Part shown: positions 2,547-38,741 of the stretch, piece after piece
Layout of the letters: every line of letters starts with the position of its first letter
How positions within the stretch are numbered: the first letter of the stretch is position 1
Source: an uncultured Cytophagales bacterium
GTDB lineage: Bacteria; Bacteroidota; Bacteroidia; Cytophagales; Bernardetiaceae
DNA length: 43,566 bases
Direction of reading: 5' to 3'
Assembly: GCA_964537755.1 (NCBI GenBank)
Contig: CAZIAQ010000002.1
Span: 1-43,566, forward strand
The notes under the pieces: model-generated
Seen by the model: only the letters and a program-made list of their open reading frames with translations
Database searches by the model: none
Told to the model about the DNA's origin: nothing
Position numbers and translations under genes: made by a program

Positions 2547-2584
2547 GCGTTGCCATTTCATCACCAACTATCCTATCCTATCCT

Positions 2585-2908
2585 ATGCTACAACTACTGA
2601 TGGCCAGTTTGCTGTGCCTTTCGCTCTCCACCACGTCCAGTTTTCACTTCAAGAGTATCCGCGCCGAGCAACATACGCTAAGTTGGCAGGTAGCCAACGA
2701 ACAGCGGTTTGGGCAGTTCTTTATCCAGCGCAAGCGCACCCACACCTGGGTTAGTTTCAAGGTGATGAACTGCAAAGGGGAAAAAGGCGTTGTGGGCTAC
2801 GCCTTACCCGTAATGCTACAAAAGGGCGAAAATCACCTACGGATCAAGTACCTTGATCTGGCCGGGCGTTCACATTATTCTCCCGAAGTTTCGATGTGGA
2901 TAGAATAA
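2585..2908 (+). CDS. Hypothetical small secreted protein (108 aa from the internal ATG)
   Basis: The ORF 2516..2908 overlaps the glyA 3' end. An internal Met at 2585 gives MLQLLMASLLCLSLSTTSS, which looks like a signal peptide. No family was recognised. Codon bias is only moderately coding-like. Confidence 0.3.
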   Translation: MLQLLMASLLCLSLSTTSSFHFKSIRAEQHTLSWQVANEQRFGQFFIQRKRTHTWVSFKVMNCKGEKGVVGYALPVMLQKGENHLRIKYLDLAGRSHYSPEVSMWIE

Positions 2909-2983
2909 ATTTTCGTAAGTTTGTTGGTTAATTTTTTTGCCTTTTTTGTAGCCTTTTGCCCTCAACAAAATGTATTGTCTAGC

Positions 2984-6958: not shown

Positions 6959-7609
6959 GTGATGAGAAGCTACACCACATTGTTTTTTCTGCTCGCCAGT
7001 GTTTTGCTGCTAAGCTGTCAGCCCAAAAAAGCAGAAATGCCCGAAGGTGCCGAGGAAGCCGAAACGGTCGATATATGGGAGGGCGTACCCATAGAGGAGT
7101 TCGTCGATACCCGCCCGGTACAGGTGCGCTACACCGAAGTTACGCAACAACTCGATAGCCTTTGGCAAGACATACACACCGCCGATAGCATCAAGCACGC
7201 TGCCTTACGCGCCCTCGAAGGAACCCTCCCACAGACACCTGGATTTGCGATGCAAAAGGAGTTTGCCACGATGGTAGCTCACTCAAGGTGGCTCGAAAAG
7301 CGTCCGCTTACCTATCAGATCATCGGAACGACGGACGAAATCGAAGCCTACGATCAGCACCTGGACGGCTTTATTGAACTGGCCGACTCGATCATACAAA
7401 ATACCCGAAACCTCGACGCCGAGACCGCCCGCTACCTCAACATGATCTTTGATGCCGATGCCGATGACCTCCTGCGCCGCACCCGTTACGAATCCCTTGT
7501 CCAGACCCACAACCAAATCCTGGAAGAGCAAAAAGATTCGCTCGAGTACTTAGGATTCCAAAATCTAAGCCCCCTACCCATCTTTGCCTATCAGGGACGT
7601 ATCCAGTAG
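6959..7609 (+). CDS. Hypothetical lipoprotein
   Basis: MMRSYTTLFFLLASVLLLSCQPKK is a signal peptide with a lipobox Cys. The remainder is acidic and helical. No family was recognised. Confidence 0.5.
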   Translation: MMRSYTTLFFLLASVLLLSCQPKKAEMPEGAEEAETVDIWEGVPIEEFVDTRPVQVRYTEVTQQLDSLWQDIHTADSIKHAALRALEGTLPQTPGFAMQKEFATMVAHSRWLEKRPLTYQIIGTTDEIEAYDQHLDGFIELADSIIQNTRNLDAETARYLNMIFDADADDLLRRTRYESLVQTHNQILEEQKDSLEYLGFQNLSPLPIFAYQGRIQ

Positions 7610-11013: not shown

Positions 11014-11877
11014 TTATCCTAAATAAGGTTTCAAGGATTTGCTACGAGAGGTGTGCCGTAACCGCCGGATGGCCTTTTCCTTGATCTGACGGACGCGCTC
11101 ACGGGTAAGATTGAACTTTTCACCGATTTCTTCGAGGGTCATGGGGTGTTCACCATTGAGTCCGAAGTAGAGCGAGATAACATCAGCTTCACGGGGCGTA
11201 AGCGTAGAGAGCGCACGCTGTACCTCTCGGCGCAGGGAGTCGTTCATCAACTCGGAGTCGGGCTTTTCTTCGGTGTTGTTTTCCAGGACATCGAGCAAGG
11301 TATTATCTTCCCCCTGAACAAAGGGCGCATCCACCGATACGTGTCGTCCGGATATTTTGAGGGTATCCACGACCTCATCTGTGCTGACTTCTAGCTCTTC
11401 GGCTAGCTCCTCGGGGGAGGGTTCGCGTTCGTAGCGTTGTTCGAGTTCGGAAAATGTCTTGGATATTTTGTTGAGCGAACCCACGCGATTGAGCGGCAAG
11501 CGCACGATACGAGACTGCTCGGCCAGTGCCTGCAAGATAGACTGACGAATCCACCAGACGGCATAGGAGATGAACTTAAAGCCACGGGTTTCATCGAAGC
11601 GTTGTGCAGCCTTGATGAGACCGAGGTTACCTTCGTTAATCAGGTCACCAAGTGAAAGCCCCTGGTTTTGGTACTGCTTGGCTACGGAGACAACAAATCG
11701 CAGGTTGGCTTTGGTGAGCTTTTCCAATGCAATCTGATCCCCTTGACGAATGCGCTTGGCTAATTCCACCTCCTCGTCAGGGGTGAGCAGATCTACCTTG
11801 CCAATTTCTTGTAAGTATTTATCAAGCGATTGGCTTTCGCGATTGGTAATCTGTTTACTGATTTTGAGTTGTCTCAT
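11014..11877 (-). CDS. rpoD: Primary RNA polymerase sigma factor (sigma-70 family)
   Basis: 287 aa, the compact Bacteroidota SigA form. Region 2 ([35 protein letters not shown]) and region 4 ([28 protein letters not shown]) are present. Confidence 0.9.
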
Positions 11878-11949
11878 ATGCGCTCAATGGAATTTTTTGG
11901 CTGTAACACTATAGGAACGCAAAAAAAGTGTACAAAGTTACACGTTTTT

Positions 11950-11990
11950 TCAAGAAAATAGCCTTGGCGGGAAATTCCTGCCAAGGCTCT
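11950..11990 (-). terminator. Rho-independent terminator downstream of nqrE
   Basis: A perfect 8-bp inverted repeat GCCTTGGC(11961-11968)/GCCAAGGC(11980-11987) with an 11-nt loop. On the minus-strand transcript it is followed immediately by UAUUUUCUUGAAAAAA, a T-rich tract. It lies 24 nt after the nqrE stop. Confidence 0.5.
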
Positions 11991-12010
11991 CGTTGATAGA
12001 CACAAGAAAC

Positions 12011-12625
12011 TTAGAGCGCAATACCCATAAAAGACATAAATGCTAGCCCCATCAAGCCCGTGATAATCATCGTAATTCCCAATCCGCGAAGCGGAGCAGG
12101 TACATTAGAGTACTTGAGTCGCTCACGGATGGCAGCCAACGCAATGATAGCCAGCCACCAACCAATACCCGAAGAGAAGCCAAAAACAGTTGCTTCCGTG
12201 ACCGTGTACTCGTTTTGTACCATGAACATCGAAGAACCGAGAATGGCACAGTTCACTGCGATCAGCGGCAGAAAGATACCCAAAGAACCGTAAAGCGACG
12301 GCGAAAACCGCTCAATAATCATCTCGACCAACTGTACCGTTGAAGCAATAACGGCGATGAAGGTGATGAATTGAAGGAAATCCAGGCTCAACTCTTTGGC
12401 ACTATCCCCAAGCAGCCATTGCAAGGCTCCTTCTTGCAGGATACGCTCCTGAATCAGCCAGTTGAGTGGTACCGTGATGGTCAAGACGAAAATAACGGCC
12501 AGCCCCAAGCCCATGGCCGTAGAGACCTTCTTAGAGACGGCCAAATATGAACACATCCCCAGAAAATAGGCAAAAACCATATTTTCGATGAAGATAGACT
12601 TAATACCCAGGTTAATCAGTTCCAT
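12011..12625 (-). CDS. nqrE: Na+-translocating NADH:quinone oxidoreductase subunit E
   Basis: 204 aa. [26 protein letters not shown]...[16 protein letters not shown]...[19 protein letters not shown] matches NqrE (RnfA-like) along its full length. Confidence 0.9.
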
Positions 12626-12654
12626 AGCTCTTTTACTTTAATATTGATGGCAAA

Positions 12655-13341
12655 TTAGTTAGTGGCTTCGGTATATCCGTTGCGTGCGCGTTGTACCCAG
12701 ATGATGATTCCCAGAACAATAAAAGCACCTACGGGGTTGGTCATCAAGCCATTATTGGTGATCTCGAGGCCCATTGCCTCAAAGACTTTAAAGCCAAACA
12801 AGGAACCAGACCCAAAGAGTTCACGGAAGAAAGCAATCGCCAAAATAACCCAGGCATAACCCAGACCACTGCCAATGCCATCCAAGACGGAATCATAAGG
12901 CTTGTTACCCATCGCAAATGCTTCCAGGCGCCCCATGATGATGCAGTTCGTGATAATCAAACTTACATACACCCCAACGACCTTAGAAACATCGTAAAAA
13001 TAGGCTTTCAAGACCTGATCTACCAGGATGACCAGCGTAGCCACAACAGCCAACTGCACAATGATCCTGACCCGCGAAGGAATCAAGTTACGGATCAGAG
13101 ATATAGTCAGGTTGGCAAATACAATAACAAAAATCACGGCTACCGACATAACAAGGGTAGGTTCGAGCTGTGCCGTAACGGCCAGGGCTGAACAAATACC
13201 CAATACCTGTACCGTAACGGGGTTGTCGTCATCAAGCGGATCGGTAACAAACTTTTTTCGGCGTTTGGAGAACAAAGCCTCTGCCGGCTGCTTGGCTACG
13301 GTAGCTTGTTGCTGCTCTAAAGTTTGGGTTTCTGTACTCAT
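12655..13341 (-). CDS. nqrD: Na+-translocating NADH:quinone oxidoreductase subunit D
   Basis: 228 aa. The NqrD/RnfE-like membrane protein reads LGICSALAVT...VLDGIGSGLGYAWVILAIAFFRELFGSGSLFG. A 4-nt overlap with nqrC. Confidence 0.9.
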   Translation of the reverse strand: MSTETQTLEQQQATVAKQPAEALFSKRRKKFVTDPLDDDNPVTVQVLGICSALAVTAQLEPTLVMSVAVIFVIVFANLTISLIRNLIPSRVRIIVQLAVVATLVILVDQVLKAYFYDVSKVVGVYVSLIITNCIIMGRLEAFAMGNKPYDSVLDGIGSGLGYAWVILAIAFFRELFGSGSLFGFKVFEAMGLEITNNGLMTNPVGAFIVLGIIIWVQRARNGYTEATN

Positions 13342-14117
13342 GGCGCAGTTTCGGTTTTGGGTGAGAAAAGGGAAGACATGGCATCGTCAGTGTTGCCTTT
13401 CTTCTCAAAATAGTTGTTGTAATCTTGCAAGTAGAATTTGAGCATGTCATTTACACCCCTGGCCGTAATGGTTGCACCAGACATACCATCTACCTGATAG
13501 TCAGAAATTTTAGAAGGGGCAAGGTTTTCGCCTTTCAGCATCTCTACCCCCACGATTTCACCTTTTTCATTGCGAATTTTCTTGCCCACATAGCGTGCCT
13601 GGATTTCGGGGGCCGTAATGCGGGCCCCAAGTCCAGGAGTTTCGGAAGCATGGTCAAACTTAGCTCCTAATACTTTCTCGTAGGTAGGATCCATGGCCAC
13701 AAAACCCCAAATATCATCCCAGAGCCCTTTTCCATAGACAGGTAAGATGTAAGCTACCACTTGCTCACCTTCTTTGTATTTGAAGATGGGGTAATAGCGT
13801 TCGGCTTTGTTGGATTTCTTGTACTCCTTGCGAATGTTTACCTTTTCGGGTTCGATGGGGTTTCCGTCCTTGTCCTGCTTTACAGCATCTCCGTTGATGT
13901 CCACGACCAGAGATTCAATATGATTGGCGTAGAGTGCCATCACATCGTCCTCTTTGCCGAGTTCTCGCACGGCACCAAGGATTTGCTTCTTCGTGTCTAG
14001 TTCTCGGGCGATGCGTTGCGGCTCACTCAAAGAGATTTTCGCGCCCGCCAAAAGCATAGCCAATACAACGGTCAGAAATGCCGTAAATCCGATGATATAA
14101 GCGTTAGAGTGTTGCAC
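13338..14117 (-). CDS. nqrC: Na+-translocating NADH:quinone oxidoreductase subunit C
   Basis: 259 aa with a single N-terminal TM then a periplasmic FMN-binding domain (SGATITARGV, a covalent-FMN threonine motif). It sits between nqrB and nqrD with overlaps. Confidence 0.85.
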   Translation of the reverse strand: MQHSNAYIIGFTAFLTVVLAMLLAGAKISLSEPQRIARELDTKKQILGAVRELGKEDDVMALYANHIESLVVDINGDAVKQDKDGNPIEPEKVNIRKEYKKSNKAERYYPIFKYKEGEQVVAYILPVYGKGLWDDIWGFVAMDPTYEKVLGAKFDHASETPGLGARITAPEIQARYVGKKIRNEKGEIVGVEMLKGENLAPSKISDYQVDGMSGATITARGVNDMLKFYLQDYNNYFEKKGNTDDAMSSLFSPKTETAP

Positions 14118-15300
14118 GTTTCAGTCTTCGTTTTTTGTTTGCTTCAACTACATAAAAATCAATCAATGGGGCAAAGACGTTCATCAACAGAACGGCCAGC
14201 ATAATACCTTCGGGATAAGCCGGATTGAACACCCGGATCAAGACCGTCAAGAGGCCAATAAAGATTCCATAAATCCATTTGCCGGTTTCGGTGTGTGCCG
14301 CTGATACTGGATCAGTTGCCATAAAGACCGCCCCAAAAGCAAAGCCACCCATAATCAAGTGCCAATGGGCTGGCATACTCATAAAGGCGTTGTAACCCAC
14401 GGCGTTGAATATACCGCCCATGAGCAAAGCACCCAACACACAACCAACAATGATACGCCAGCTAGCCACGCCAGTAGCAATCAAGATAATTGCGCCTACC
14501 AGAGCCATCAACGCAGAGGTCTCTCCGATAGAACCTGGAATAGTACCAATGAGCATATTGAGTGGTGTAAACATCTCTCCGGCAGCACCCCATCCCGCAG
14601 TTGCTTCCAGGAGAGCTGTGCCTACAGGCTGACTGGCATTGGCGGCAATGGCCAAAGCCGTAGCACCGGTGTAACCATCCACTACGGCAGCATCTCCGAG
14701 GTAGGTCCAGACTTCACCCGAAATATCCGATGGATACGCGAAGTACAAGAACGCACGTGCCGTCATGGCTACGTTGAGTACGTTCATGCCCGTTCCTCCA
14801 AAAGCCTCCTTAGCAATCAAGACCGCAAAAATCGTCGCCAATGCTACCTGCCACAAAGGAATCGTAGGCGGCATCACCAATGGAACAAGCATTCCGGTTA
14901 CCAAAAAACCTTCGTTGATTGGGTGCTTGCGTGTGATGGCAAAGACCACCTCTACCAAACCACCAGCCGTGTAAGAGACCAAAACCACCGGCAAAACCAC
15001 CAGCGAACCTATCAAGAGCTGGCTCACCAAATCAGGGGCTGCTCCGGTAGCTAAGTTGTGTTGGTATCCTACGTTCCAGATACCAAAAAGCAAGCAGGGA
15101 ACCATAGCCACGACAACCGTAATCATCATGCGCTTGAGGTCGATGGCATCCCGAATCTGTACCCCACGGGCGGCCGTCGTTGTGGGCGGCGTAAAGGCAA
15201 AGGTCTCTGCCGCTTCAAAGAGATAATAAAACCGCTCTAACTTGCCTCTTTTCTCGAAGAGCGGTTTTTGTTTTTCTAAGATGTTGTGTAAGAAGTGCAT
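14104..15300 (-). CDS. nqrB: Na+-translocating NADH:quinone oxidoreductase subunit B
   Basis: 398 aa polytopic membrane protein with GYTGATALA and VDGMSGAT-like FMN-attachment motifs (NqrB/RnfD family). Confidence 0.9.
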   Translation of the reverse strand: MHFLHNILEKQKPLFEKRGKLERFYYLFEAAETFAFTPPTTTAARGVQIRDAIDLKRMMITVVVAMVPCLLFGIWNVGYQHNLATGAAPDLVSQLLIGSLVVLPVVLVSYTAGGLVEVVFAITRKHPINEGFLVTGMLVPLVMPPTIPLWQVALATIFAVLIAKEAFGGTGMNVLNVAMTARAFLYFAYPSDISGEVWTYLGDAAVVDGYTGATALAIAANASQPVGTALLEATAGWGAAGEMFTPLNMLIGTIPGSIGETSALMALVGAIILIATGVASWRIIVGCVLGALLMGGIFNAVGYNAFMSMPAHWHLIMGGFAFGAVFMATDPVSAAHTETGKWIYGIFIGLLTVLIRVFNPAYPEGIMLAVLLMNVFAPLIDFYVVEANKKRRLKRATL

Positions 15301-15333
15301 AGCAACGATTGGTATTGGTTCAGTTATGTAAAT

Positions 15334-16710
15334 TTATACTTCGGTAGATCGGATCAAATCCAGTCCCTCCCGAATGATCTCCTGGATCGGATGCTTGGAT
15401 ACGTCGATGAACTCACAGAGCGCGAAATCCTCCTCCACGACTTCATAAATACCCAGCGTCTCCATACCGTCATAATCTTCGGCTAGGATGGCTTTAATCA
15501 AGTGTGTGGGTAGAATATCCATCGGCAAAACCTGCTCGAAAGCCCCCGTAACAACAAAGGCGCGTTCTTCGCCGTTGGTGCTGGTATCCAGGGCGTATTC
15601 TTTTTTCTTGCCGTTCAGAAAGGAGAGCAGACCCAATGCTCGGTGAAAACTCACTCGATTGGTTACCGGAGCGAGCCATCCATCGGTCAGGAAGAAACGC
15701 GGCTTATCGCCTTCGGGCAAAACCGATAGTTGATGGTGATAATAGCCGAGGAAACTGTCTTTTTCGATGCGTTCGCCCGTCAAGGGGTTCCCCGAAATGA
15801 CCCGTACATGATCGCTCTTGAGTTGATCTTTGATGAGCGTATCGACACAAGAGCCATGAAAGACCTCGTAGTATTGAGGCGACTTGACCTCTGATCCGGT
15901 CAAAGCAATTTTTTTGCGGGCATCGTACTTGCCTGTCAGGAGGAGCCTTCCAATGAGTGCCAATCCGTAGGGGTTGAGCGTCCAGACGACCTCCCCTTTG
16001 TTGATCGGGCTAATGTGATGGATATGCACACCTACGTTTCCGGCCGGGTGTGGGCCCGACACCTGATGGAGTGTAACGCCTTGTAAGTCCTTGAATACGC
16101 TAGATACCTCTGCTGCCTGATTAACCGTCAGGTGGATGGGCGCACCGGTCATCTTAGCCAGGGCATGAATACCTGCTTGTATGTTTTTTTCTTCTCCCTT
16201 AAACAAAAAGTCGTAATCGGGAGCTAAGGGGTGAGAATCAAAAGCGGAAATGAAAATGGCTTTGGGTTGGCTATCTATCGGAGGAACAACGCCGTAGGGA
16301 CGCTGTAAGATTTGGGGCCAGGCACCACTTTTGGCAATAACTTCTTTGAGCTTTTCGGGAGCTATCTGACTGATTTCGGAGGGGTTGAAGACCTCAAAAG
16401 GAAGGTATTCCATCGCCTGATCGACCAGCACCACAACGGCTAACAATTTTCGCTTTTCGCCGCGCCGGATCTCCACGACCTCCCCACTGACAGGGGAAGT
16501 GTACATGATCTCTGGATGAAGTTTATCGTAGAGGATAGGCGTACCAGCCTTCACGACCTCACCTTCCTTTACCATCAACTTAGGGCGAGACATCCCCAAA
16601 AAATCACTAGGCTTGATCGCCACTCGCGTCAAAGAGGGGGCTTTGCCCAGGGTCATCTCTGCCTTTCCGGCCAGATTTATATCGAAACCTTTCTTTACCT
16701 TAATGTGCAT
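15334..16710 (-). CDS. nqrA: Na+-translocating NADH:quinone oxidoreductase subunit A
   Basis: 458 aa, starting MHIKVKKGFDINLAGKAEM... like NqrA N-termini. It is the first gene of the minus-strand nqr cluster. Confidence 0.9.
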   Translation of the reverse strand: MHIKVKKGFDINLAGKAEMTLGKAPSLTRVAIKPSDFLGMSRPKLMVKEGEVVKAGTPILYDKLHPEIMYTSPVSGEVVEIRRGEKRKLLAVVVLVDQAMEYLPFEVFNPSEISQIAPEKLKEVIAKSGAWPQILQRPYGVVPPIDSQPKAIFISAFDSHPLAPDYDFLFKGEEKNIQAGIHALAKMTGAPIHLTVNQAAEVSSVFKDLQGVTLHQVSGPHPAGNVGVHIHHISPINKGEVVWTLNPYGLALIGRLLLTGKYDARKKIALTGSEVKSPQYYEVFHGSCVDTLIKDQLKSDHVRVISGNPLTGERIEKDSFLGYYHHQLSVLPEGDKPRFFLTDGWLAPVTNRVSFHRALGLLSFLNGKKKEYALDTSTNGEERAFVVTGAFEQVLPMDILPTHLIKAILAEDYDGMETLGIYEVVEEDFALCEFIDVSKHPIQEIIREGLDLIRSTEV

Positions 16711-29120: not shown

Positions 29121-29801
29121 CTAGCGATTGGTTTGGGCGTACCAAAACTGTAATACACGATCAATTTGGACTTCGAGCCACAACAACGTGCGATCTACGC
29201 TCCCACGCATCGAGAAAAAGTAAGCCACAAGCAAGGCTATCGAATAAAACAAGATGTCCAGATAAGCAAAGCGATCTGCGATAAAACCATAGAGTTGGGA
29301 TAAATCAAATATCTGAATAACAGTAAAATAGCTTAACTTGAGTGTCGCGACCACATAAGCAATCGAGCTGAATGTATTCCCCAGCAAACAACCCAAAATC
29401 GCCAGTACCACTGCCACCACACCAAAACGCGGATGCCGGCCACGCCCCAAAAAGCGTACCGCCAGCCCCACGACCAGCCCCACCAGCACGGACATATAAG
29501 CATGTTGTGGGTCATAAGCCAAATCTTTTTCGAGAATAATCGTGGATTCGGCCCAGGCAAATGCTCCGATGAGTGCTGCCAAAAGACCACCAATGATTGC
29601 CCAGGTCAAACTTTCTCTTACTGTCATGTCTTCGTTCGTTAGGTATAGGTTTGTATCCGATACCTCTGCCTCTTGCCGCTCAAGGGCTGCTCTGCGCTCT
29701 TGTAACCGCTTAAAAACAAAGCGTTTATCAGATTTGGATGGAGTGTTAGAGGGATGCACGGATGATGAGATGTTAAATGTTTGGTGTAAATCAATAGTCA
29801 A
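29121..29801 (-). CDS. Hypothetical integral membrane protein
   Basis: 226 aa. The N-terminal ~60 aa are polar and charged (RFVFKRLQERRAALERQEAEVSD), followed by ~5 TM helices. No family was recognised, and the true start may be an internal Met. Confidence 0.4.
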   Translation of the reverse strand: MTIDLHQTFNISSSVHPSNTPSKSDKRFVFKRLQERRAALERQEAEVSDTNLYLTNEDMTVRESLTWAIIGGLLAALIGAFAWAESTIILEKDLAYDPQHAYMSVLVGLVVGLAVRFLGRGRHPRFGVVAVVLAILGCLLGNTFSSIAYVVATLKLSYFTVIQIFDLSQLYGFIADRFAYLDILFYSIALLVAYFFSMRGSVDRTLLWLEVQIDRVLQFWYAQTNR

Positions 29802-30305: not shown

Positions 30306-31445
30306 CTACTCCTCCTGGGCTGTCAGGCACTCGACGACATCGGAAACGCGCCCCTTGCCATCCTTGAACTGCACAAAAAGCCGCTCGCCCGTAGCCGGTG
30401 GCACGCGGCTGGTGTACATCTCGTAGGCTTTCCAGTCCGTATCCGCAAAAGCAGCCCCCACGCCAAAGCGCATCTGGCTTGCCCCCACGGCAAAGACCTG
30501 CAAGCGCGTCGGGGTATCGAGTTGGGGCTGCTCCAACCACGCCGCACCGATGGGGATGGGCGGCGGCGGCTCGGGAAGTGCGCCGTAGGAGTACAAGACC
30601 ATGTTGTAGAGCTGAAAAAGATCGCGGCGGCGTAGCTGTTGGTGCTTGCGTTTGAGTTGGGCAAAGGAGAGATATGCGTCGATGGCCGCCTGGTGCTGCC
30701 CCGAAAGCTGCTCAATATCCCCGAGCGTGAAGAGCAACTGCGCTGCCGCAAACTGTTCCTTGCCTATTTGTTGGAGGGCATCCTTAGTCAGGCGGCGGGC
30801 TTGCTCGGCTTCTCCCATACTGACATACAAGCGCACCAGACGATACAGCCCCGACTGATAATCTTCGGAGTTTTGTTTGCCCGACGATTTGAGTTGTTGG
30901 AGGTAGCTCTGATAATACTTTTGGGCGGCATCGTAATCGTATTCTTTTTCGTAATAAATTCCCAATACGCGCTGGTGCAAGGGACTGCCTGCATCGGCTT
31001 TTTGGCGAGCCGTTTCGAGGGCTTCGGTCAGGATGTTACCCAACCAGAGCTTCCCCTGCTGCATCAGATCAAACGCTACCGTACCTTTGGGGATCGGCGG
31101 AAAAACCATCGCAAAATAACGGATCGGCGTATCCTCCTGGCAGGTGATATTGCCGATCTGGGCCTCCTGCAAAGCCACCAAAGGGAGGCGTTTGTCGGTA
31201 TCCACTTGCAGGTACCACTGGGGGCGCGTCGCTGAAAGGCTTTCTACATGAATTACATCGCCGTCCAGGCAGACCAATTCGAGGTATAGAACTGTCTGCT
31301 GGTCAGTCAGTTCGAGTTTTTGTAAGGTAAAGTTTTCCGAAGTCCCCATCCCGACGACTGGTGGCTCAATGACCGTCTGGGCTAAGGCACTTTGTCCCCA
31401 ACAGCAAGAGATGAGCAAAATCAGGAATAGGCAGCGTTGCAACAT
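30306..31445 (-). CDS. Hypothetical secreted protein with TPR-like helical repeats
   Basis: Start chosen at MLQRCLFLILLISCCWGQSALAQ, a signal peptide. The C-terminal half has TPR-like helices (YDAAQKYYQSYLQQLK..., LYRLVRLYVSMGEAEQARRLTKDALQ). It is transcribed divergently from the PIG-L gene. Confidence 0.5.
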   Translation of the reverse strand: MLQRCLFLILLISCCWGQSALAQTVIEPPVVGMGTSENFTLQKLELTDQQTVLYLELVCLDGDVIHVESLSATRPQWYLQVDTDKRLPLVALQEAQIGNITCQEDTPIRYFAMVFPPIPKGTVAFDLMQQGKLWLGNILTEALETARQKADAGSPLHQRVLGIYYEKEYDYDAAQKYYQSYLQQLKSSGKQNSEDYQSGLYRLVRLYVSMGEAEQARRLTKDALQQIGKEQFAAAQLLFTLGDIEQLSGQHQAAIDAYLSFAQLKRKHQQLRRRDLFQLYNMVLYSYGALPEPPPPIPIGAAWLEQPQLDTPTRLQVFAVGASQMRFGVGAAFADTDWKAYEMYTSRVPPATGERLFVQFKDGKGRVSDVVECLTAQEE

Positions 31446-31493
31446 GAATTTCTTACTTTTGTCTGATCGTCTGATGACTAATCCCGAAATACA

Positions 31494-33989
31494 ATGCCAA
31501 GATACGTTTTGTTGTTTTTTTTCGTGCTTTTTTTTCCGATCCTTCTCCCCGGGCAAACTCCCGAAATGAACGCCTCACAGATCGCCCTGGCTCTCCAACA
31601 CCTTCACGTACAGGGGCGTGTGCTGTACGTAGCCGCCCATCCGGACGACGAAAACACCCGCCTCATCGCGTATCTGGCCACCCACAAAGGCTATCATACG
31701 GGCTATCTTTCCCTGACCCGAGGCGACGGCGGACAAAACCTCATCGGGAGTGAAGTCCGAGAGCAACTGGGTTTGATTCGTACCCAAGAACTGATCGCGG
31801 CCCGAAAGATCGACGGTGGGGTGCAGTTTTTTTCGCGGGCCAATGACTTCGGCTTCTCGAAACACCCCGACGAGACCTTTGCGATCTGGGATCGGGAGCA
31901 AGTGCTGGCCGATGTCGTTTGGACGATACGAAAGTTTCGCCCCGATGTCATCATTACCCGCTTCTCCCCCGATCGGGCGGGCAAAACACACGGACACCAC
32001 ACGGCCTCGGCCCAGCTAGCCGTGGAGGCTTTTCATGCCGCCGCCGATTCGTCCCGCTTTCCCGAGCAGCTCAAGTACGTCCGTCCCTGGCAAGCCAAGC
32101 GCATCTTCTGGAATACCTCTTCGTGGTTTTATCGCAACGATCCAAAGGCTTTTGAAGAAGCCAAAAAACAACTGCTCTCCCTCGATGCCAGCCCGTACAA
32201 CCCTCTTTTGGGGCAATCCATCGGCACCATCGCGGCTTTGAGCCGCAGTATGCACCGCTCACAGGGCTTTGGAGCAGCCCTCCAGCGCGGGGAGGAACCC
32301 GAACTCTTCCAGTGGCTTGCCGGCGATACAGCGACGCACGACCTCTTCGAGGGCATCAACACCCACTCGAACCGCTACCCCAACACAGAACAAGTGGCTC
32401 ATTGGATCGCCCAAGCCCAGACACGCTTTACGCCCGCCGCCCCGCATCGCATCCTGCCCGAACTCCTCCAGGCTCGGGAGGCACTCTTGCCGCTTCTGCC
32501 CCAGCAACCCGAACTCGACCATCAACGCCAACGCCTCGAAGCCCTTATCTGTGCCGCTGCCGGCATTTGGGCCGATGCCACCACGACAAGCCCTACCGTT
32601 GCCGTAGGCGATAGCCTCCTTGTCCGCTTGCGTGCCATCAACAGAAGCCCCGTAAGTATCGTGATCCAGCAAAGCGATTTTGGGCAGACCCTCGATGATA
32701 CCCTTCGTCAAATGCCAAACAACCAAATGATTAGCTGGCAAAGCAAAATCCTACTCCCCGATACACTCCCCACCGCACAGCCTTACTGGCTCAAAAAAAC
32801 AGGCACAACGGGGATGTTCTTCGTCGATCAACAACACCAAATTGGGCTTGCCCAAAACCCTCCCGCCTATACCGTCCGCCTGCTCTGCAAGATCATCGCC
32901 GAAGGCACCGACGCCCAAATCCCCTTGGAGCTACCCGTCCAGTATCGGGAGGTGCGCCCCGACGAAGGCGAACGCTACCAACCCCTGGCCCTTGTCCCTC
33001 CCCTGACGGCACAACTCGAAAACGACCTCTTTTTGTTTGCCAACGACAGCCCCCAAGACCTCCGCCTACGGGTGAAATCTTTCCTGCCCAAAGCCCAAAC
33101 CATAGTACGCCCGCTTGTCCCCCACGGATGGATTATCCAACCCAGCCAACAAAGCATCCAGCTACAAGGGCGCGGCAGTGAGCAAGAAGTAAGTTTCCGC
33201 TTGATCCCGCCCTCCGAGCCAAGTGAAGACACCCTGCAAATCCTCCTGGAAACAGATAAAGCCACTTACCAACAGGGATTTACGCGCATCGACTACCCCC
33301 ACATCCCAAACCAATACCTCCTCCCGACGGCACAGGCCCGCCTTTCCCGCCTCGACATCCAGACCCGCCCCGAGGAACGCATCGGTTATCTCATGGGAGC
33401 CGGCGATAAAATCCCCGAAGCCCTGCGGCAGATCGGCTATGCCGTCGATTTGCTCCAGCCCGAGACGCTCACCCTGAGTGAGTTGCAACGCTACACGACC
33501 GTCATTGTGGGTATCCGCGCCTACAACACCATCCCGAGGTTGCGCTTTTTGCAGCCTAGCTTGATGCAGTTTGTCGAACAGGGCGGCAACCTGATCGTGC
33601 AGTACAACACCTCCTTCGGGCTAGTAACCGACCAGCTCGGCCCCTATCCCTTCAAACTATCCCGAGATCGAGTAACCGTAGAGACGGCTCCCATGACCCT
33701 CCTCAAACCCGATCATCCGCTACTCCAAAGCCCCAACCGCCTCACCGATGCCGACTTCACGGGCTGGGTACAAGAGCGCGGACTCTACTTCCCCAACGAG
33801 TGGGACGAACGCTACACGCCCATTTTTTCTTGCCACGACCCCAACGAAGACCCCAAACAAGGGGCCCTCCTCGTGGCCCGCTATGGCAAGGGAACCTACA
33901 TCTATACCGGTCTTTCGTTTTTCCGCGAGCTGCCCGCTGGCGTAACGGGGGCTTACCGCTTGTTTGTCAATCTGATTTCGTACCGATAA
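31494..33989 (+). CDS. PIG-L/LmbE family N-acetylglucosaminyl-type deacetylase, large multidomain form with a C-terminal ThuA/GATase1-like domain
   Basis: 831 aa with a signal peptide. The N-terminal LmbE signature is VLYVAAHPDDEN...HTGYLSLTRGDGGQN. The C-terminal region (TTVIVGIRAYNTIPRLRFLQPSLMQFVEQGGNLIVQYN) resembles the ThuA/class-I-GATase-like fold. Confidence 0.7.
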   Translation: MPRYVLLFFFVLFFPILLPGQTPEMNASQIALALQHLHVQGRVLYVAAHPDDENTRLIAYLATHKGYHTGYLSLTRGDGGQNLIGSEVREQLGLIRTQELIAARKIDGGVQFFSRANDFGFSKHPDETFAIWDREQVLADVVWTIRKFRPDVIITRFSPDRAGKTHGHHTASAQLAVEAFHAAADSSRFPEQLKYVRPWQAKRIFWNTSSWFYRNDPKAFEEAKKQLLSLDASPYNPLLGQSIGTIAALSRSMHRSQGFGAALQRGEEPELFQWLAGDTATHDLFEGINTHSNRYPNTEQVAHWIAQAQTRFTPAAPHRILPELLQAREALLPLLPQQPELDHQRQRLEALICAAAGIWADATTTSPTVAVGDSLLVRLRAINRSPVSIVIQQSDFGQTLDDTLRQMPNNQMISWQSKILLPDTLPTAQPYWLKKTGTTGMFFVDQQHQIGLAQNPPAYTVRLLCKIIAEGTDAQIPLELPVQYREVRPDEGERYQPLALVPPLTAQLENDLFLFANDSPQDLRLRVKSFLPKAQTIVRPLVPHGWIIQPSQQSIQLQGRGSEQEVSFRLIPPSEPSEDTLQILLETDKATYQQGFTRIDYPHIPNQYLLPTAQARLSRLDIQTRPEERIGYLMGAGDKIPEALRQIGYAVDLLQPETLTLSELQRYTTVIVGIRAYNTIPRLRFLQPSLMQFVEQGGNLIVQYNTSFGLVTDQLGPYPFKLSRDRVTVETAPMTLLKPDHPLLQSPNRLTDADFTGWVQERGLYFPNEWDERYTPIFSCHDPNEDPKQGALLVARYGKGTYIYTGLSFFRELPAGVTGAYRLFVNLISYR

Positions 33990-34056
33990 AATCCATAGGA
34001 TTCGGGATTTCTTCCTATCTTGCCTTACCAAAAAAACACTCAGACCAAGCCAAAAC

Positions 34057-34713
34057 ATGAAATTTTTTATTGATACTGCTGATCTTCAACAAATCGAACA
34101 GGCCCAACAGATGGGCATCCTCGATGGCGTAACCACCAACCCCTCCTTGATGGCAAAGGTGGGCATTTCGGGGAAGGATGCCATTTTTAAGCACTACAAA
34201 GCCATCTGCGACCTGGTGGTAGGCGATGTGAGTGCCGAAGTAATCGCGACCGACTACGCGGGTATCGTCCGTGAAGGAGAGGAACTGGCCGAGATCGACC
34301 CCAAAATTGTCGTGAAAGTACCCATGATTCCGTCCGGTATTCGGGCCATTTATCACTTTACCCAACACCAAATCAAGACCAACTGCACCCTGGTTTTTTC
34401 GCCCTTGCAGGCCTTGCTGGCCGCCAAGGCTGGGGCCACTTATGTCTCGCCTTTCATTGGGCGGCTCGACGACATCGCCACCGATGGGCTAGATGTGGTG
34501 GGACAGATTGCTACAATTTTTGAAAACTACGCTTTCCCGACCCAGGTCTTGGCCGCCTCCATTCGACATCCGATGCACCTGCTGGCCTGTGCCGAGATGG
34601 GCGTAGATGTGGCTACGCTGCCCTTTGCCGTCATCGAAAGCCTCTTTAAGCATCCGCTCACAGATGCCGGCTTAGCTAAGTTCCTCTCCGATGCCCAACA
34701 ACTGAATTTGTAG
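34057..34713 (+). CDS. tal: Transaldolase / fructose-6-phosphate aldolase (short subfamily)
   Basis: 218 aa. MKFFIDTADLQQIEQAQQMGILDGVTTNPSL..., with the Schiff-base lysine region IVVKVPM, matches Fsa/TalC-type enzymes. Confidence 0.9.
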   Translation: MKFFIDTADLQQIEQAQQMGILDGVTTNPSLMAKVGISGKDAIFKHYKAICDLVVGDVSAEVIATDYAGIVREGEELAEIDPKIVVKVPMIPSGIRAIYHFTQHQIKTNCTLVFSPLQALLAAKAGATYVSPFIGRLDDIATDGLDVVGQIATIFENYAFPTQVLAASIRHPMHLLACAEMGVDVATLPFAVIESLFKHPLTDAGLAKFLSDAQQLNL

Positions 34714-34769
34714 GGCTTAGCCAACGAACCTTCGGGGATAGCTTTGCGTTATCTCCTAAAAAAAATGCC

Positions 34770-36206
34770 ATGTACGAGTTTACCAAAATCGAACGCATTA
34801 CGCCACAGGTTCGCCCCTCCAACGAGCGCGTCCATAACTTCAACGAAATACAGGAGATTTATACCGAAGAGGAGACGGCCTCTCAGGCGAGCCGTTGCTT
34901 GCAGTGCGGCAATCCGTATTGCAGCGCGACGGGTTGTCCATTAGGCAATTACATCCCGCAGTGGTTAAAGTTTATCGCCGAAAAAGACCTCCGTTTGGCC
35001 TTCGATATATCCAACGAGACTTCTCCTTTCCCCGAAATTTTGGGGCGCATCTGTCCGCATAGCCGTCTCTGTGAAGGTGCTTGTACCCTCAACGACGGCA
35101 ATGCGTACGAGACCATCGGTGCCATCACGATTGGCTCGATTGAGGTAGCCATCTCCGAGCAAGGCTTCAAGCAGGGTTTTACGCCGCAGTTTGCCCCCTT
35201 GCCGAGCGATGCCAAGCGGGTGGCTATCATTGGCTCGGGGCCGGCGGGGCTTTCGTGTGCGCATTTTTTGTTGCGGGCCGGCATTCGTCCGGTAGTTTAT
35301 GAGCGTTCGGATGCTGCCGGCGGGCTACTGACCTATGGCATCCCGAGTTTTAAGCTCGAAAAAACTGCCGTGGATCGTCGGATAGCGGTCTTGCAGGCCG
35401 CTGGTATGGAACTTCACCTCAACACAGAAGTAGGCAAAGATGTCTCGTTTACGCAACTACACACCACACACGATGCTGTTTTTATCGCCATTGGTGCTTT
35501 GCAGGGTCGTGTCCTGGATCAGGAAAGCTACAACACCCCGAATCTCTACATGGCTGTTCCGTACCTGACCAACGCCCAGAAGATCATCACCGAACAGCCC
35601 TACGACAAAAAATACCACGTCGCCGGCAAGCACGTCATCGTGATTGGGGGCGGCGATACGGCCATGGATTGCGTCCGTACCTCCCTACGCCTGGGGGCAT
35701 CACGGGTGCAGTGCCTCTATCGCCGCGATGAAGCCAACATGCCCGGCAGCCGCAAGGAAGTACAGGCAGCCAAAGAAGAAGGCGTAGAGTTTATCTATCA
35801 AAAATCGCCCAAGCGGCTCCTCTCCGATGATCGGGGGTGGCTTGTCGGAGCCGAGTTTGTAGATACCCAACTCGTCCCCCAACCCGATGGCCGCGACCGC
35901 GTAGAGGAAGTCGAAGGCTCGGAGCGCGTCTGGAGTGCCGATGTTATCATTCTGGCTTTGGGTTTTAAGAACGAACGCCTGCCGTTTTTGGAGGAAAACG
36001 GTATTGCCCTCAACGAGTGGGGAGCCATCCAGGTAGATGAACACCAACAAACAACCAAAACCGGCGTTTTTGCCGGTGGCGATGGCGTGCGTGGGGCTGA
36101 CCTGGCCGTAACGGCGGCCCTGGACGGACGCGAGGCAGCTTTGCATATCATTGATTTTATTTTTAAAGAACAAGAACTGGCCCATGACTTTTCTGATCGT
36201 AGATGA
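34770..36206 (+). CDS. Glutamate synthase small-subunit-like NAD(P)H-dependent Fe-S flavoprotein (GltD family), orphan with no adjacent gltB
   Basis: 478 aa. The N-terminal 2x[4Fe-4S] cysteine clusters are CLQCGNPYCSATGCPLGNY and ICPHSRLCEGACTL. Two dinucleotide-binding sites follow (VAIIGSGPAGLSCA, VIVIGGGDTAMDC). No large-subunit gene is on either side. Confidence 0.8.
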   Translation: MYEFTKIERITPQVRPSNERVHNFNEIQEIYTEEETASQASRCLQCGNPYCSATGCPLGNYIPQWLKFIAEKDLRLAFDISNETSPFPEILGRICPHSRLCEGACTLNDGNAYETIGAITIGSIEVAISEQGFKQGFTPQFAPLPSDAKRVAIIGSGPAGLSCAHFLLRAGIRPVVYERSDAAGGLLTYGIPSFKLEKTAVDRRIAVLQAAGMELHLNTEVGKDVSFTQLHTTHDAVFIAIGALQGRVLDQESYNTPNLYMAVPYLTNAQKIITEQPYDKKYHVAGKHVIVIGGGDTAMDCVRTSLRLGASRVQCLYRRDEANMPGSRKEVQAAKEEGVEFIYQKSPKRLLSDDRGWLVGAEFVDTQLVPQPDGRDRVEEVEGSERVWSADVIILALGFKNERLPFLEENGIALNEWGAIQVDEHQQTTKTGVFAGGDGVRGADLAVTAALDGREAALHIIDFIFKEQELAHDFSDRR

Positions 36207-37278
36207 CGAAGCAGGTAGCTTACACAGCATTTATCAAGCCATCAACCAGATTGAGGAAGGATACAACGTCCTGAAAGCACCCAACGGAAAGATCGCTTTT
36301 GAGATCGCCAAAAAGCATCTCCCCGATCTGGTCATTACCGATTGGGAGATGCCCGAAATGAACGGCATCGCCCTCCTGCAAGCCCTCAAAGCCCACCGAC
36401 ACACGGCCGATATTCCCGTTATCATGGCAACAGGCATTATGACCTCCTCCCAAAACCTCCAGACAGCACTCGATGCCGGTGCCGTAGATTATGTCCGCAA
36501 GCCCATCGACCCCATCGAGTTGCGGGCCAGGATACAATCCGTCTTGCGGCTTTCGGAGAGCTTCAAAGAGATCAAATCCCTCAATGCCACCAAAGACCGT
36601 GTTTTTTCGATTATCTCCCACGACTTGCGCAGCCCGCTCAACCTCCTACAAGGCATCCTGACCATCTTCCAGCTCGGAGGATTCAATGATCCCGACGAGC
36701 TACAAAAGATGATGGCCAACGCAAGCCTCAACGTACAAAACATCTCCGAACTCCTCGAAAACTTGCTGAGCTGGGCCCGTATCCAGATCGAATCCGAGGG
36801 GCAAAGTATGCACCCCAGAGCCATCCAACTGCCCCATCTGCTCCGCAATACCATCCAGCTTTTCGGAGAAATGCAGCAACAAAAAGACATCCAAATCAAC
36901 CGATATTTACCCGAGCATCTGCCCGACGTTTGGGTCGATCCAGAAGCGGTCAAGTTGGTGCTACGCAACCTCATCAGCAACGCCCTCAAGTTCACGCCCC
37001 GAGGAGGGCAGGTCAGTATCCGGATAGAGGAAATTTCGGAGACAACCCTCAAAATTTACGTACAAGATACCGGCGTGGGCATGTCGCCGGCCACACAAGA
37101 GAAGCTCTTCCTGGGTATCACCGAAAGCCAGCGTGGCACCAACAACGAACGCGGAACAGGCTTAGGTCTAATGCTTTGTAGGGATTTTGTGGAATGGAAC
37201 GGCGGAGAGATCGGCGTAACCAGCGCACCGGGAGCAGGCAGCACCTTTTGGTTTACCTTGCCGAGCCATCGCGCGTAA
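36184..37278 (+). CDS. Hybrid two-component protein: N-terminal receiver (REC) domain fused to HisKA + HATPase_c, with no sensor domain
   Basis: Start chosen at MTFLIVDDE. REC has its phospho-Asp in ITDWEMPEMNG and VDYVRKP. The HisKA H-box is SIISHDLRSPLN. The HATPase N/G boxes are NLISNALKFT and GTGLGL. The start overlaps the 3' end of the GltD-like gene by 23 nt. Confidence 0.8.
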   Translation: MTFLIVDDEAGSLHSIYQAINQIEEGYNVLKAPNGKIAFEIAKKHLPDLVITDWEMPEMNGIALLQALKAHRHTADIPVIMATGIMTSSQNLQTALDAGAVDYVRKPIDPIELRARIQSVLRLSESFKEIKSLNATKDRVFSIISHDLRSPLNLLQGILTIFQLGGFNDPDELQKMMANASLNVQNISELLENLLSWARIQIESEGQSMHPRAIQLPHLLRNTIQLFGEMQQQKDIQINRYLPEHLPDVWVDPEAVKLVLRNLISNALKFTPRGGQVSIRIEEISETTLKIYVQDTGVGMSPATQEKLFLGITESQRGTNNERGTGLGLMLCRDFVEWNGGEIGVTSAPGAGSTFWFTLPSHRA

Positions 37279-38065
37279 GCGATACCCGAGTAGGGATTTC
37301 TTTGCGTCCCAGGGTGCGTAGCATACGGGCTAAAGCATCGGTTTGTCCCGTGCTACCAAAACGATGTTGCGTTACTTCTTGGGGAGCTATCGCGTATCTC
37401 CAACGGCGGGCCACCTGACGAGCCACTGCCTCGGCTGGCTCCACAACCACGACCCCAGCAGGCAGCAACTCCTCCAGAGCCGGTATCAGAAAGGGATAAT
37501 GCGTACAGCCCAGTACCAGATGGTCGATCCTGTCCGAGAGCATGGGGGCTAGGTATTGCGCCAACAAAGCCATCGTTTGTGGGGTCTGGATATGACCAGC
37601 TTCTACACACTCCACCAGCCCATGCCCAATGCAGCTATGCACCGTTACGTGTTCAGCAAATCGGGCTTTGGTTTCCCGAAAAAGCCGGCCGTTGAGCGTG
37701 CCAGCCGTGGCCAGCAGTCCGATATGTCCCGTTTGGGTTTGAAGGACGGCAGGCTTAAGGGCCGGCTCCATACCCACGATGGGCATACGCCCCCCCCAAA
37801 TGTGCCGAAGCGTACCGATAGCAGCGGCGGTAGCGGTATTGCAGGCCACCACCAACAAACGGCAGCCCTGCCCGTAAAGGTATCTGGCAATAGCCAGACT
37901 GCGCTCGGCGATGCGTTCGGGGGACTTATCCCCGTAAGGGCAATACGCCTGATCGGCTAGATAGATCGTTGGCACCTCGGGCAGAAGCCGCTCAATGGCC
38001 CGCCATACGGACAGCCCTCCTACGCCCGAATCAAAGACCCCAATACAAGGGCGATGCTCATTCAT
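37253..38065 (-). CDS. murI: Glutamate racemase
   Basis: 270 aa with IGVFDSGVGGLSV (first catalytic Cys region), ACNTA and the second catalytic motif (GCTHYP). Its 3' end overlaps the convergent HK gene by 26 nt. Confidence 0.9.
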   Translation of the reverse strand: MNEHRPCIGVFDSGVGGLSVWRAIERLLPEVPTIYLADQAYCPYGDKSPERIAERSLAIARYLYGQGCRLLVVACNTATAAAIGTLRHIWGGRMPIVGMEPALKPAVLQTQTGHIGLLATAGTLNGRLFRETKARFAEHVTVHSCIGHGLVECVEAGHIQTPQTMALLAQYLAPMLSDRIDHLVLGCTHYPFLIPALEELLPAGVVVVEPAEAVARQVARRWRYAIAPQEVTQHRFGSTGQTDALARMLRTLGRKEIPTRVSLTRDGSAR

Positions 38066-38741
38066 AGAAGACCGCGATCTGGTCTAGGGGTTTTCGTTTG
38101 ATTTTCGGAACATAAACCTCCTCGGCAGGATAGCCTACGGGCAAGAGCAAAAACGGGCGTTCGTTGTGCGGGCGGTCCAGGACATCGGCCAAAAAACCCA
38201 TCGGGCTAGGCGTATGCGTAACCGTAACCAGCCCCGCATGATGGATCGCCTGGATGAGCATCCCGCAGGCCAGTCCTACCGATTCACTGACGTAGTAATT
38301 GTTGCGGCGTTGGGTGCCTTCCATCTCGAAGTTTCGCCGAAAAACCACGATGAGATAGGGGGCAATCTCCAGGAAGGGTTTTTCCCAGGAGGTACCGATG
38401 GGACGCAAGTCGTCGAGCCAGGTATCGGGCATCCGTTGTTGGTAGTTTTTGCGCTCTTCTTCTTCGGCGGCGGCCCGAATGCGGGCTTTGTAAGCCGGAT
38501 CAGCGACGACACAAAATGTCCAGGGTTGGCGGTTGGCACCCGAAGGAGCCGTAGAGGCCGTCAGGAGGATGTTTTCGATGACCGCACGCGGGATGGGTTT
38601 ATCCGAAAAAGTCCTGACGGTGCGGCGTTGATTTGCCTGATAATAAAAATCCTCCGTGCGCTGAATCATCTCCTCGGGGGTGTAAGTCTTAGCCGTATAG
38701 CGTTCGTGGGGATAGCCATCTATCCAGAGATCGGTTTCCAT
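38058..38741 (-). CDS. Nitroreductase-superfamily flavoprotein closely resembling iodotyrosine deiodinase (IYD, halotyrosine dehalogenase)
   Basis: 227 aa. The blocks are RRTVRTFSDKPIPRAVIENILLTASTAPSGANRQPWTFCVVADPAYKARI, EEEERKNYQQRM, LEIAPYLIVVFRR, NYYVSESVGLACGMLIQAIHHAGLVTVTHTP and LLLPVGYPAEEVYVPKIKRKPLDQIAVF. By recollection they align nearly block for block with human IYD, including the Glu/Tyr/Lys lid residues. An 8-nt overlap with the murI start. Confidence 0.7.
   Translation of the reverse strand: METDLWIDGYPHERYTAKTYTPEEMIQRTEDFYYQANQRRTVRTFSDKPIPRAVIENILLTASTAPSGANRQPWTFCVVADPAYKARIRAAAEEEERKNYQQRMPDTWLDDLRPIGTSWEKPFLEIAPYLIVVFRRNFEMEGTQRRNNYYVSESVGLACGMLIQAIHHAGLVTVTHTPSPMGFLADVLDRPHNERPFLLLPVGYPAEEVYVPKIKRKPLDQIAVFYE

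Follow-up and report, generated by a model that had tools for sequence, protein, structure and literature searches.

A glutamate synthase beta subunit gene paired with a relay-type histidine kinase gene in a small clade of uncultured Bernardetiaceae-related bacteria

The gltD-kinase locus

We analyzed a 43.5-kb stretch of a Bernardetiaceae (Bacteroidota) metagenome-assembled genome (MAG), hereafter the window, in which a gene for a flavoprotein of the GltD family runs into a gene for a soluble histidine kinase. A first-pass annotation of this DNA had proposed that the two products form a redox-sensing pair, the flavoprotein being an orphan and the kinase lacking an input of its own. The evidence described below indicates that the flavoprotein is, by sequence, the beta subunit of NADPH-dependent glutamate synthase (GOGAT), that its partner gene gltB has become separated from gltD within a small clade, and that gltD and the kinase gene probably make up a lineage-specific operon.

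The first of the two genes, gltD, lies on the plus strand at 34770..36206 and encodes the NADPH-glutamate synthase small (beta) subunit of 478 amino acids (aa), an assignment based on TIGR01318, Pfam, a PDB match and orthology. The protein consists of an N-terminal domain for two [4Fe-4S] clusters (Fer4_20, aa 20-134, nt 34827-35171) followed by an FAD/NADPH domain (Pyr_redox_2, aa 150-452, nt 35217-36125). The second gene, also on the plus strand at 36184..37278, starts at the ATG at 36184 in a frame different from that of gltD and encodes a soluble relay-type histidine kinase of 364 aa. Pfam divides it into a receiver (Response_reg, aa 4-118, nt 36193-36537) with the phospho-acceptor D53 at 36340-36342, a HisKA domain (aa 137-201, nt 36592-36786) with H146 at 36619-36621, and a HATPase_c domain (aa 252-361, nt 36937-37266). 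The gltD stop codon, TGA at 36204-36206, falls inside the kinase gene, and the 23-nt overlap of the two plus-strand genes noted previously (36184..36206) can be read directly from the sequence. NCBI labels the two products as 'glutamate synthase subunit beta' (MGF1532259) and 'ATP-binding protein' (MGF1532258).

Identity and sequence constraint of GltD

The window GltD scores 515.6 bits against TIGR01318, above the cut-off of 482.95, and stays below the cut-off of every sister-family model, namely AegA (486.7 vs 1003), YgfT, TIGR01316, TIGR01317, the archaeal-type gltA and the NfnB-type. Pfam recovers Fer4_20 with an E-value of 2.3e-31 and Pyr_redox_2 with one of 3.8e-31. The top match in the PDB is GltD of Azospirillum brasilense (6S6S_G, 387 bits), with lower scores for NfnI (271 bits), a DPD-like protein (268) and a Bacillus small chain (259). 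The cysteine motifs CX2CX4CX4C and CX5CX3C align with those of A. brasilense GltD, and the FAD motif GSGPAG and the NADPH motif GGGDTAMD...YRRD (GGGDTAMDC) align with 6S6S_G. These alignments bear out the earlier description of a GltD-family protein with two 4Fe-4S clusters and sites for FAD and NAD(P)H.

To measure constraint we aligned 119 GltD homologues, among which 138 columns are conserved at 95% or more. The window GltD keeps 137 of the 138 columns, and its single departure equals the median of one over all sequences. This departure is the replacement of K272 by Ile (nt 35583-35585), at the second Lys of an LTNxQKK loop. The residue is Lys in at least 95% of 115 other GltDs and Gln in three close relatives (P0002-P0004), and the loop that carries it is not conserved in the Azospirillum enzyme. 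In a neighbor-joining (NJ) tree the protein nests among the GltDs of Cytophagales, with unremarkable stem and tip branches and no acceleration. Pfam and TIGR models detected no additional N-terminal domain in GltD and no nfnA, preA or ferredoxin-domain gene beside gltD. Judged by its sequence, the window flavoprotein is an NADPH-GOGAT beta subunit, and glutamate synthase activity is predicted for it.

The gene order in relatives points the same way. A scan with one genome per species gave 80 gltD loci, 48 of which encode a GltD at least 41% identical to that of the window. In 40 of these gltB adjoins gltD, in six there is too little flanking DNA, and two (L020 and L048) are without gltB, so that gltB stands beside gltD in 40 of the 42 informative relatives outside the clade of the window protein. 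The adjoining open reading frame (ORF) of ~1,480 aa carries four GltB domains, GATase_2, Glu_syn_central, Glu_synthase and GXGXG. Adjacency of gltB in relatives had been named beforehand as evidence against the proposed redox-sensing pair, and it is what these 40 loci display. The description of the flavoprotein as an orphan does not survive the score above the curated cut-off, the 137 conserved columns and the position of gltB next to its orthologues.

One of the two loci without gltB is of separate interest. At L020:10001-11371 (Cytophagales MAG MFD03250.bin.3.125, contig_5188) a GltD homologue of 456 aa is encoded with no gltB in the 10 kb to each side. This protein deviates in 17 of the 138 conserved columns, compared with the median of 1, and is a much better candidate than the window GltD for a truly orphan, diverging GltD-like protein.

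Separation of gltB from gltD

No gltB is present in the window, since its longest ORF, for a PIG-L protein, has 831 aa and ~1,480 aa would be expected; the absence of a large subunit gene nearby had been correctly noted. The same holds for the nearest relatives. The window GltD forms a clade of five members with P0002, P0003, P0004 and L001, in none of which gltB adjoins gltD. The GltDs of this clade are 79-81% identical to that of the window (L001 and P0003 are 93% identical to each other), and the remaining Cytophagales GltDs are 62-71% identical to it.

Two gltB genes standing alone were found among relatives. In GCA_039024475.1, the assembly of a clade member, gltD, whose product is 81% identical to that of the window, is on contig JBCCQF010000199 and gltB is on contig JBCCQF010000085. 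The gene directly upstream of this gltD is divergently transcribed and is not gltB, and the 193 nt 3' of gltB contain no gltD start. The gene after the second solo gltB (P0271) is unrelated; this gltB is 82% identical to the gltB of GCA_039024475.1 and ~70% identical to all others, and thus mirrors the GltD clade. It comes from run ERR6290780, which also gave the L082 contig bearing a gltD-kinase pair, and this shared run makes it likely that the P0271 gltB and the L081/L082 pair come from one organism. The GC content at third codon positions (GC3) of the P0271 gltB exceeds that of the genes of L081, which leaves the assignment to one organism tentative. Within a small uncultured clade related to Bernardetiaceae, gltB and gltD have been split. 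Because gltB adjoins gltD in relatives, the protein is under normal GltD constraint and a clade member has a solo gltB, we interpret the window flavoprotein not as an orphan but as a beta subunit of GOGAT whose gene has been displaced.

L001, the closest relative of the window gltD in the genome collection, is a MAG contig of 3.4 kb whose flanks (1-1018 and 2432-3372) contain no convincing ORF or Rfam match. A run of N lies inside its gltD, and the contig may be an assembly artefact.

The kinase and its family

The kinase start at 36184 is also the start annotated by NCBI and corresponds to the same residue in two of three orthologues, the third being called six residues longer. Pfam scores are 33.5 bits for HisKA and 95.1 bits for HATPase_c, and HWE_HK gave no Pfam match in the protein. 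No transmembrane helix was found (the maximum Kyte-Doolittle score over 19 residues is 0.81) and no unassigned stretch of more than 50 aa separates the domains, so the kinase is soluble and has no further sensor domain. Pfam and hydropathy therefore agree with the domain order described before, receiver, HisKA and HATPase with neither a membrane span nor a PAS/GAF input domain.

The claim that the kinase is input-less fared differently. Across 15 aligned family members D7, D8, D53, K106, H146, N266, D295/G297/G299 (G1) and G324/G326/G328 (G2) are invariant, and position 83 is Thr or Ser. The receiver residues D7, D8, D53 and K106 are intact in all orthologues, and because the phospho-acceptor Asp is kept, the receiver itself can be regarded as the input of the kinase. 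'Sensor-less' proteins of the REC-HisKA-HATPase type are, on this evidence, best read as relay elements with receiver input.

The family to which the kinase belongs is very large in Bacteroidota. Its members have ~360-390 aa and the same architecture, and the homologues listed are 41-50% identical to the window kinase over their full length. For the wider family we examined the context of homologues at 41-48% identity at six independent loci. A sensor kinase gene lies directly upstream in five of the six: in four it encodes a TPR-HATPase sensor kinase (L085/86, L087/88, L090 and L174), and in L089 a HisKA-HATPase kinase, with a stand-alone receiver downstream. In L175 the gene directly upstream encodes a REC-SpoIIE phosphatase. 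A metagenome scan with the kinase alignment, which used generic patterns, returned L089 and L090 as true family members among the matches listed. The layout of the wider family suggests a multi-step relay in which the upstream sensor kinase is the expected phosphodonor. The 'TPR kinase + REC-kinase' cassette of Bacteroidota is widespread and uncharacterised. A paralogue of the window kinase, MGF1534058, is 46% identical and groups with the gltD-linked kinases in an NJ tree; it probably comes from the window MAG, because its NCBI accession is close by and the organism name is identical.

Two of the wider-family loci, L085:1799-7107 and L087:2190-7122, share the order glutamate dehydrogenase gene (gdhA), TPR sensor kinase, REC-HisKA-HATPase, with different outer flanks, which places homologues of the window kinase near the second enzyme that forms glutamate. 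A general link of the kinase family to glutamate genes was considered and rejected, as none is seen in L089, L090, L174 or L175. The gdhA cluster may be common to L085 and L087 by shared ancestry only.

Conservation of the gene pair and its junction

We found gltD followed by the receiver-kinase gene, with order and strand unchanged, in the two relatives whose contigs are sufficiently long (L081/82 and L083/84). There GltD is 79-80% and the kinase 67-68% identical to the window proteins, the range for the kinase orthologues being 67-71% over all of L081-L084. Three of the five clade members thus have the pair. In the GltD NJ tree these three genomes lie across the clade root, and the pair is therefore probably ancestral to the clade. 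Of the 37 window genes used in the synteny comparison, gltD and the kinase gene are the only ones with a homologue less than 10 kb from gltD in L081 and L083, which argues that the rest of the gene order has been scrambled at this divergence. The gene upstream of gltD differs at each locus, being an aldolase gene in the window, a DUF5691 gene in L081 and a divergent guanylate cyclase gene in L083.

Beyond these three genomes the pair is not found. The sublineage of L001 and L171 (two of the five clade members) keeps gltD and lacks the kinase gene, and at the other 75 genome loci no member of the kinase family stands beside gltD. Conservation of the pair, which had been suggested as a check on the redox-sensing proposal, thus holds for two other clade members and fails for the remaining two and for the other 75 genome loci examined. 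At L171:2660-4586 gltD is followed by an ORF of 318 aa with no Pfam match and then by a convergent gene, truncated by the contig end, for a REC-Hpt protein.

The junction between the two genes is less stable than the pair itself. The intergenic distance is -23 nt in the window and +10 (as called) and +65 nt in the orthologous pairs, and this spacing varies because the C-terminal tail of GltD differs in length and sequence. The overlap arises from a lineage-specific tail (...DFIFKEQELAHDFSDRR), and among the clade loci compared it is specific to the window genome. Translational coupling of the two genes had been proposed from the overlap; the overlap is real in the window, but it is not a conserved property of the pair.

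In L081 and L083 a third gene follows the kinase gene. It encodes a secreted subtilisin-like S8 peptidase of 513 aa (L081:12551-14092 and L083:7042-8583; 56% identical between the loci), is co-directional and overlaps the kinase stop by 4 nt, forming a gltD-kinase-protease unit. No homologue of this peptidase is present in the window, where a convergent murI occupies the position.

Horizontal acquisition of gltD and the kinase gene was considered as an origin of the arrangement and set aside, as GC content and GC3 agree with the window and with the orthologous loci.

Promoter and RNA signals

The -7 promoter consensus of Bacteroidota is TAnnTTTG. The window contains 34 matches to this consensus where 20.8 are expected, a number that one shuffle in 100 attains. 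Copies occur, e.g., at 34739, 6938, 11933, 16742, 31454 and 38771, and many of all copies stand a short distance 5' of a gene. The copy at 34739..34746, TAGCTTTG, precedes the gltD ATG by 24 nt and is the sole match on the plus strand between 33990 and 37300; the motif does not occur between the start of gltD and the end of the kinase gene. Neither L081 nor L083 conserves it exactly. We regard TAGCTTTG as a weak candidate for the promoter of a gltD-kinase transcript, and its position would fit a single transcript. Rfam models detected neither riboswitches nor RNAs of any other kind in 31000-38500 or in L001, and a scan for sigma-70 promoters and terminators returned nothing above chance.

Neighboring genes and other features of the window

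Upstream of gltD lies a gene for a fructose-6-phosphate aldolase / transaldolase (34057..34713, plus strand; TIGR00875, 268 bits). We take it as the upstream boundary of the gltD-kinase unit because the orthologous loci do not share it. The downstream boundary is murI, for glutamate racemase (37253..38065, minus strand; TIGR00067, 192 bits), which is convergent with the kinase gene and overlaps its 3' end by 26 nt (37253-37278). The other genes of the window are housekeeping genes and include glyA, lepA, an rpoD-like sigma factor gene, nqrA-E, murE, pepA, ssb, mutY and pncB.

In the stretch 11014-16710 (minus strand) nqrA, B, C, D and E (12011-16710) are directly followed by a gene of the sigma-70 family (11014-11877), and nqrF does not adjoin the nqr genes. 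Three ORFs gave no Pfam match at E <= 1e-5: 29121-29801 (minus strand, 226 aa), 30306-31556 (minus strand, 416 aa) and 6959-7609 (plus strand, 216 aa). The 831-aa PIG-L-domain protein is encoded divergently (31494-33989), and the first 63 nt of its gene also belong to the 416-aa ORF; one of the two starts has therefore probably been miscalled.

Discussion

Both proteins of the gltD-kinase locus belong to known families, and it is the gene order that is a clade-specific variant. We consider it probable that the locus is a lineage-specific operon that joins an ordinary GOGAT beta subunit to a phosphorelay kinase taking its input through the receiver. GltD would pass electrons from NADPH via FAD and its two [4Fe-4S] clusters to the alpha subunit, GltB, encoded elsewhere in the genome and unlinked from gltD. 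A sensor kinase, likewise encoded elsewhere, would phosphorylate Asp53 in the receiver of the relay kinase; this would alter how actively the attached HisKA/HATPase core autophosphorylates, and the core would in turn act on a downstream response regulator, as in the route from BphP1 through ExsG to ExsF. The two genes would be co-transcribed, together with the secreted S8 protease gene in two relatives, so that the relay kinase is made together with a nitrogen-assimilation gene, and direct sensing of GltD by the kinase would be unnecessary. The operon is supported by the persistence of the pair in the window, L081 and L083 although the other 35 window genes have no counterpart at either of the latter two loci. 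What both proteins are, the split of gltB from gltD and the retention of the adjacency in three genomes are shown by the sequences; co-transcription, the phosphodonor and the way in which receiver phosphorylation acts on the kinase core are inferred.

Several observations weigh against this explanation. The gltB of the window MAG is not among the 120 best GltB matches, and cluster look-ups of ten GltB matches found none from the window MAG and identified only the GltB of a relative, so a GltB partner within the window genome itself is assumed. According to Pfam and profile annotation the 43.5-kb window holds no two-component gene besides that of the REC-HisKA-HATPase kinase, and thus no other sensor kinase or response regulator; nor does a sensor kinase lie at the L081 or L083 loci. 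GltD occupies the position, directly upstream, of the signalling partner in the wider family, as a model with GltD as sensory partner would also predict. Finally, the pair has outlived the loss of local synteny, which hints at more than co-expression.

The alternative that survives best, which we nevertheless judge unlikely, is that the adjacency is an accident of the gltD/gltB rearrangement, has been kept by the closeness of the three genomes and has no regulatory or physical meaning. The arrangement is limited to one shallow clade with GltDs 79-81% identical, the pair is missing in two of five clade members and at all 75 other genome loci, and the 23-nt overlap is not conserved, all of which an accident would allow. 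However, it is only gltD and the kinase gene, of 37 window genes, that recur within 10 kb in L081 and L083, the pair spans the clade root and so has persisted since the ancestor of the clade, and the shared strand with short or negative spacing fits co-transcription.

Still less likely is a trigger-enzyme or co-sensor role, in which GltD or the GOGAT holoenzyme binds the receiver-kinase and reports NADPH, redox state or glutamine/2-oxoglutarate flux, taking the role that the upstream TPR sensor kinase has for the paralogues of the kinase. The place of GltD directly upstream and tightly spaced, where the usual signalling partner of the family stands, would suit such a role. So would the retention of the pair as the sole synteny among three diverged loci and the replacement of K272 by Ile or Gln common to all four clade GltDs examined. 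Regulatory moonlighting is also known among enzymes of glutamate metabolism, one case being RocG, which acts on GltC in B. subtilis (PMC6794564). On the other side, the phospho-acceptor site of the receiver is intact in all orthologues, so that a kinase is still expected as phosphodonor, and GltD has no other sequence change, extra domain or rate acceleration. K272 is not conserved in the Azospirillum enzyme, the spacing of the genes drifts from -23 to +65 nt, and the L001/L171 sublineage has lost the pair while retaining gltD. The co-sensor reading was examined at the level of gene adjacency. We give little credence to the idea that the GOGAT beta subunit, alone or in the holoenzyme, was recruited as the sensing partner of the receiver-kinase in place of the TPR sensor kinase. 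In that case NADPH/redox state or the flux of glutamate synthesis would feed a two-component relay, possibly one controlling nitrogen scavenging, a target that would fit because a secreted S8 protease is co-operonic in two relatives. Should GltD prove to modulate the kinase, glutamate metabolism would have its first demonstrated trigger enzyme with a histidine kinase as target.

A non-GOGAT function of the flavoprotein, as a GltD-like electron-input module for another acceptor in the manner of NfnB/SudA, PreT or AegA, is highly improbable: GltD-like modules are reused by several enzymes (PMC8097209) and no gltB was found in the window or, for the window MAG, among the 120 best GltB matches, but the protein scores above the GltD cut-off and far below those for AegA, YgfT, archaeal gltA and the NfnB-type, lies inside a clade of GltDs encoded with gltB, has an aldolase and a kinase as neighbors with none of the candidate acceptors (nfnA, preA or a ferredoxin domain) encoded alongside, and the solo gltB of clade relatives would otherwise be without a beta subunit.

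Returning to the probable operon of a displaced gltD and a relay kinase gene, the observations have a wider bearing. They indicate that gltB and gltD can be unlinked in Bacteroidota, and a lone gltD is not to be read as a new oxidoreductase. The unit of gltD and relay kinase, with a secreted protease in some relatives, offers a lead into the coupling of nitrogen assimilation and two-component signalling in Cytophagales. To our knowledge, the NtrBC system is not well established in this order.

Comparison with known systems

The arrangement had been presented as an undescribed system, and our literature search agrees in that it found no paper linking GltD with a histidine kinase. The closest parallel for an enzyme in such a role, the control of GltC by RocG/GudB in B. 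subtilis, is conceptual only (PMC6794564); in the known cases the enzymes act on DNA-binding regulators and not on histidine kinases.

The components themselves compare well with characterized proteins. In GltD proteins the N-terminal domain carries two [4Fe-4S] clusters, and an FAD/NADPH domain resembling adrenodoxin reductase comes after it (PMC8097209). The window GltD has the same length and domain order as GltD of the A. brasilense / E. coli type (6S6S, 2VDC; TIGR01318), with which all Cys, FAD and NADPH motifs align. Unlike the typical gltD, that of the window is not beside gltB, its product carries the clade change of K272 to Ile or Gln, and the short, non-conserved C-terminal tail runs into the next gene.

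For the kinase the nearest logic is that of ExsG of Rhizobium/Agrobacterium, which is both a response regulator and a kinase and whose autokinase activity is set by an upstream kinase through phosphorylation of the Asp in the receiver (PMC3899027). Like ExsG, the window kinase is soluble, with the receiver first, the kinase core second and no other sensor domain, and members of its wider family stand directly after a sensor kinase in five of the six contexts. The core of ExsG is of the HWE type and the protein is hexameric, whereas the window kinase has a classical HisKA and HATPase_c core and gltD as the upstream gene. By analogy, the window kinase would follow ExsG-like logic, with control of the core by the receiver, while lying outside the ExsG family. 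The same kinase architecture is found in the Bacteroidota cassettes of a TPR sensor kinase and a REC-HisKA-HATPase protein, which are annotated as 'hybrid sensor histidine kinase/response regulator'. Compared with these cassettes, the clade of the window has gltD in place of the upstream TPR kinase gene and, in two relatives, an S8 protease gene after the kinase.

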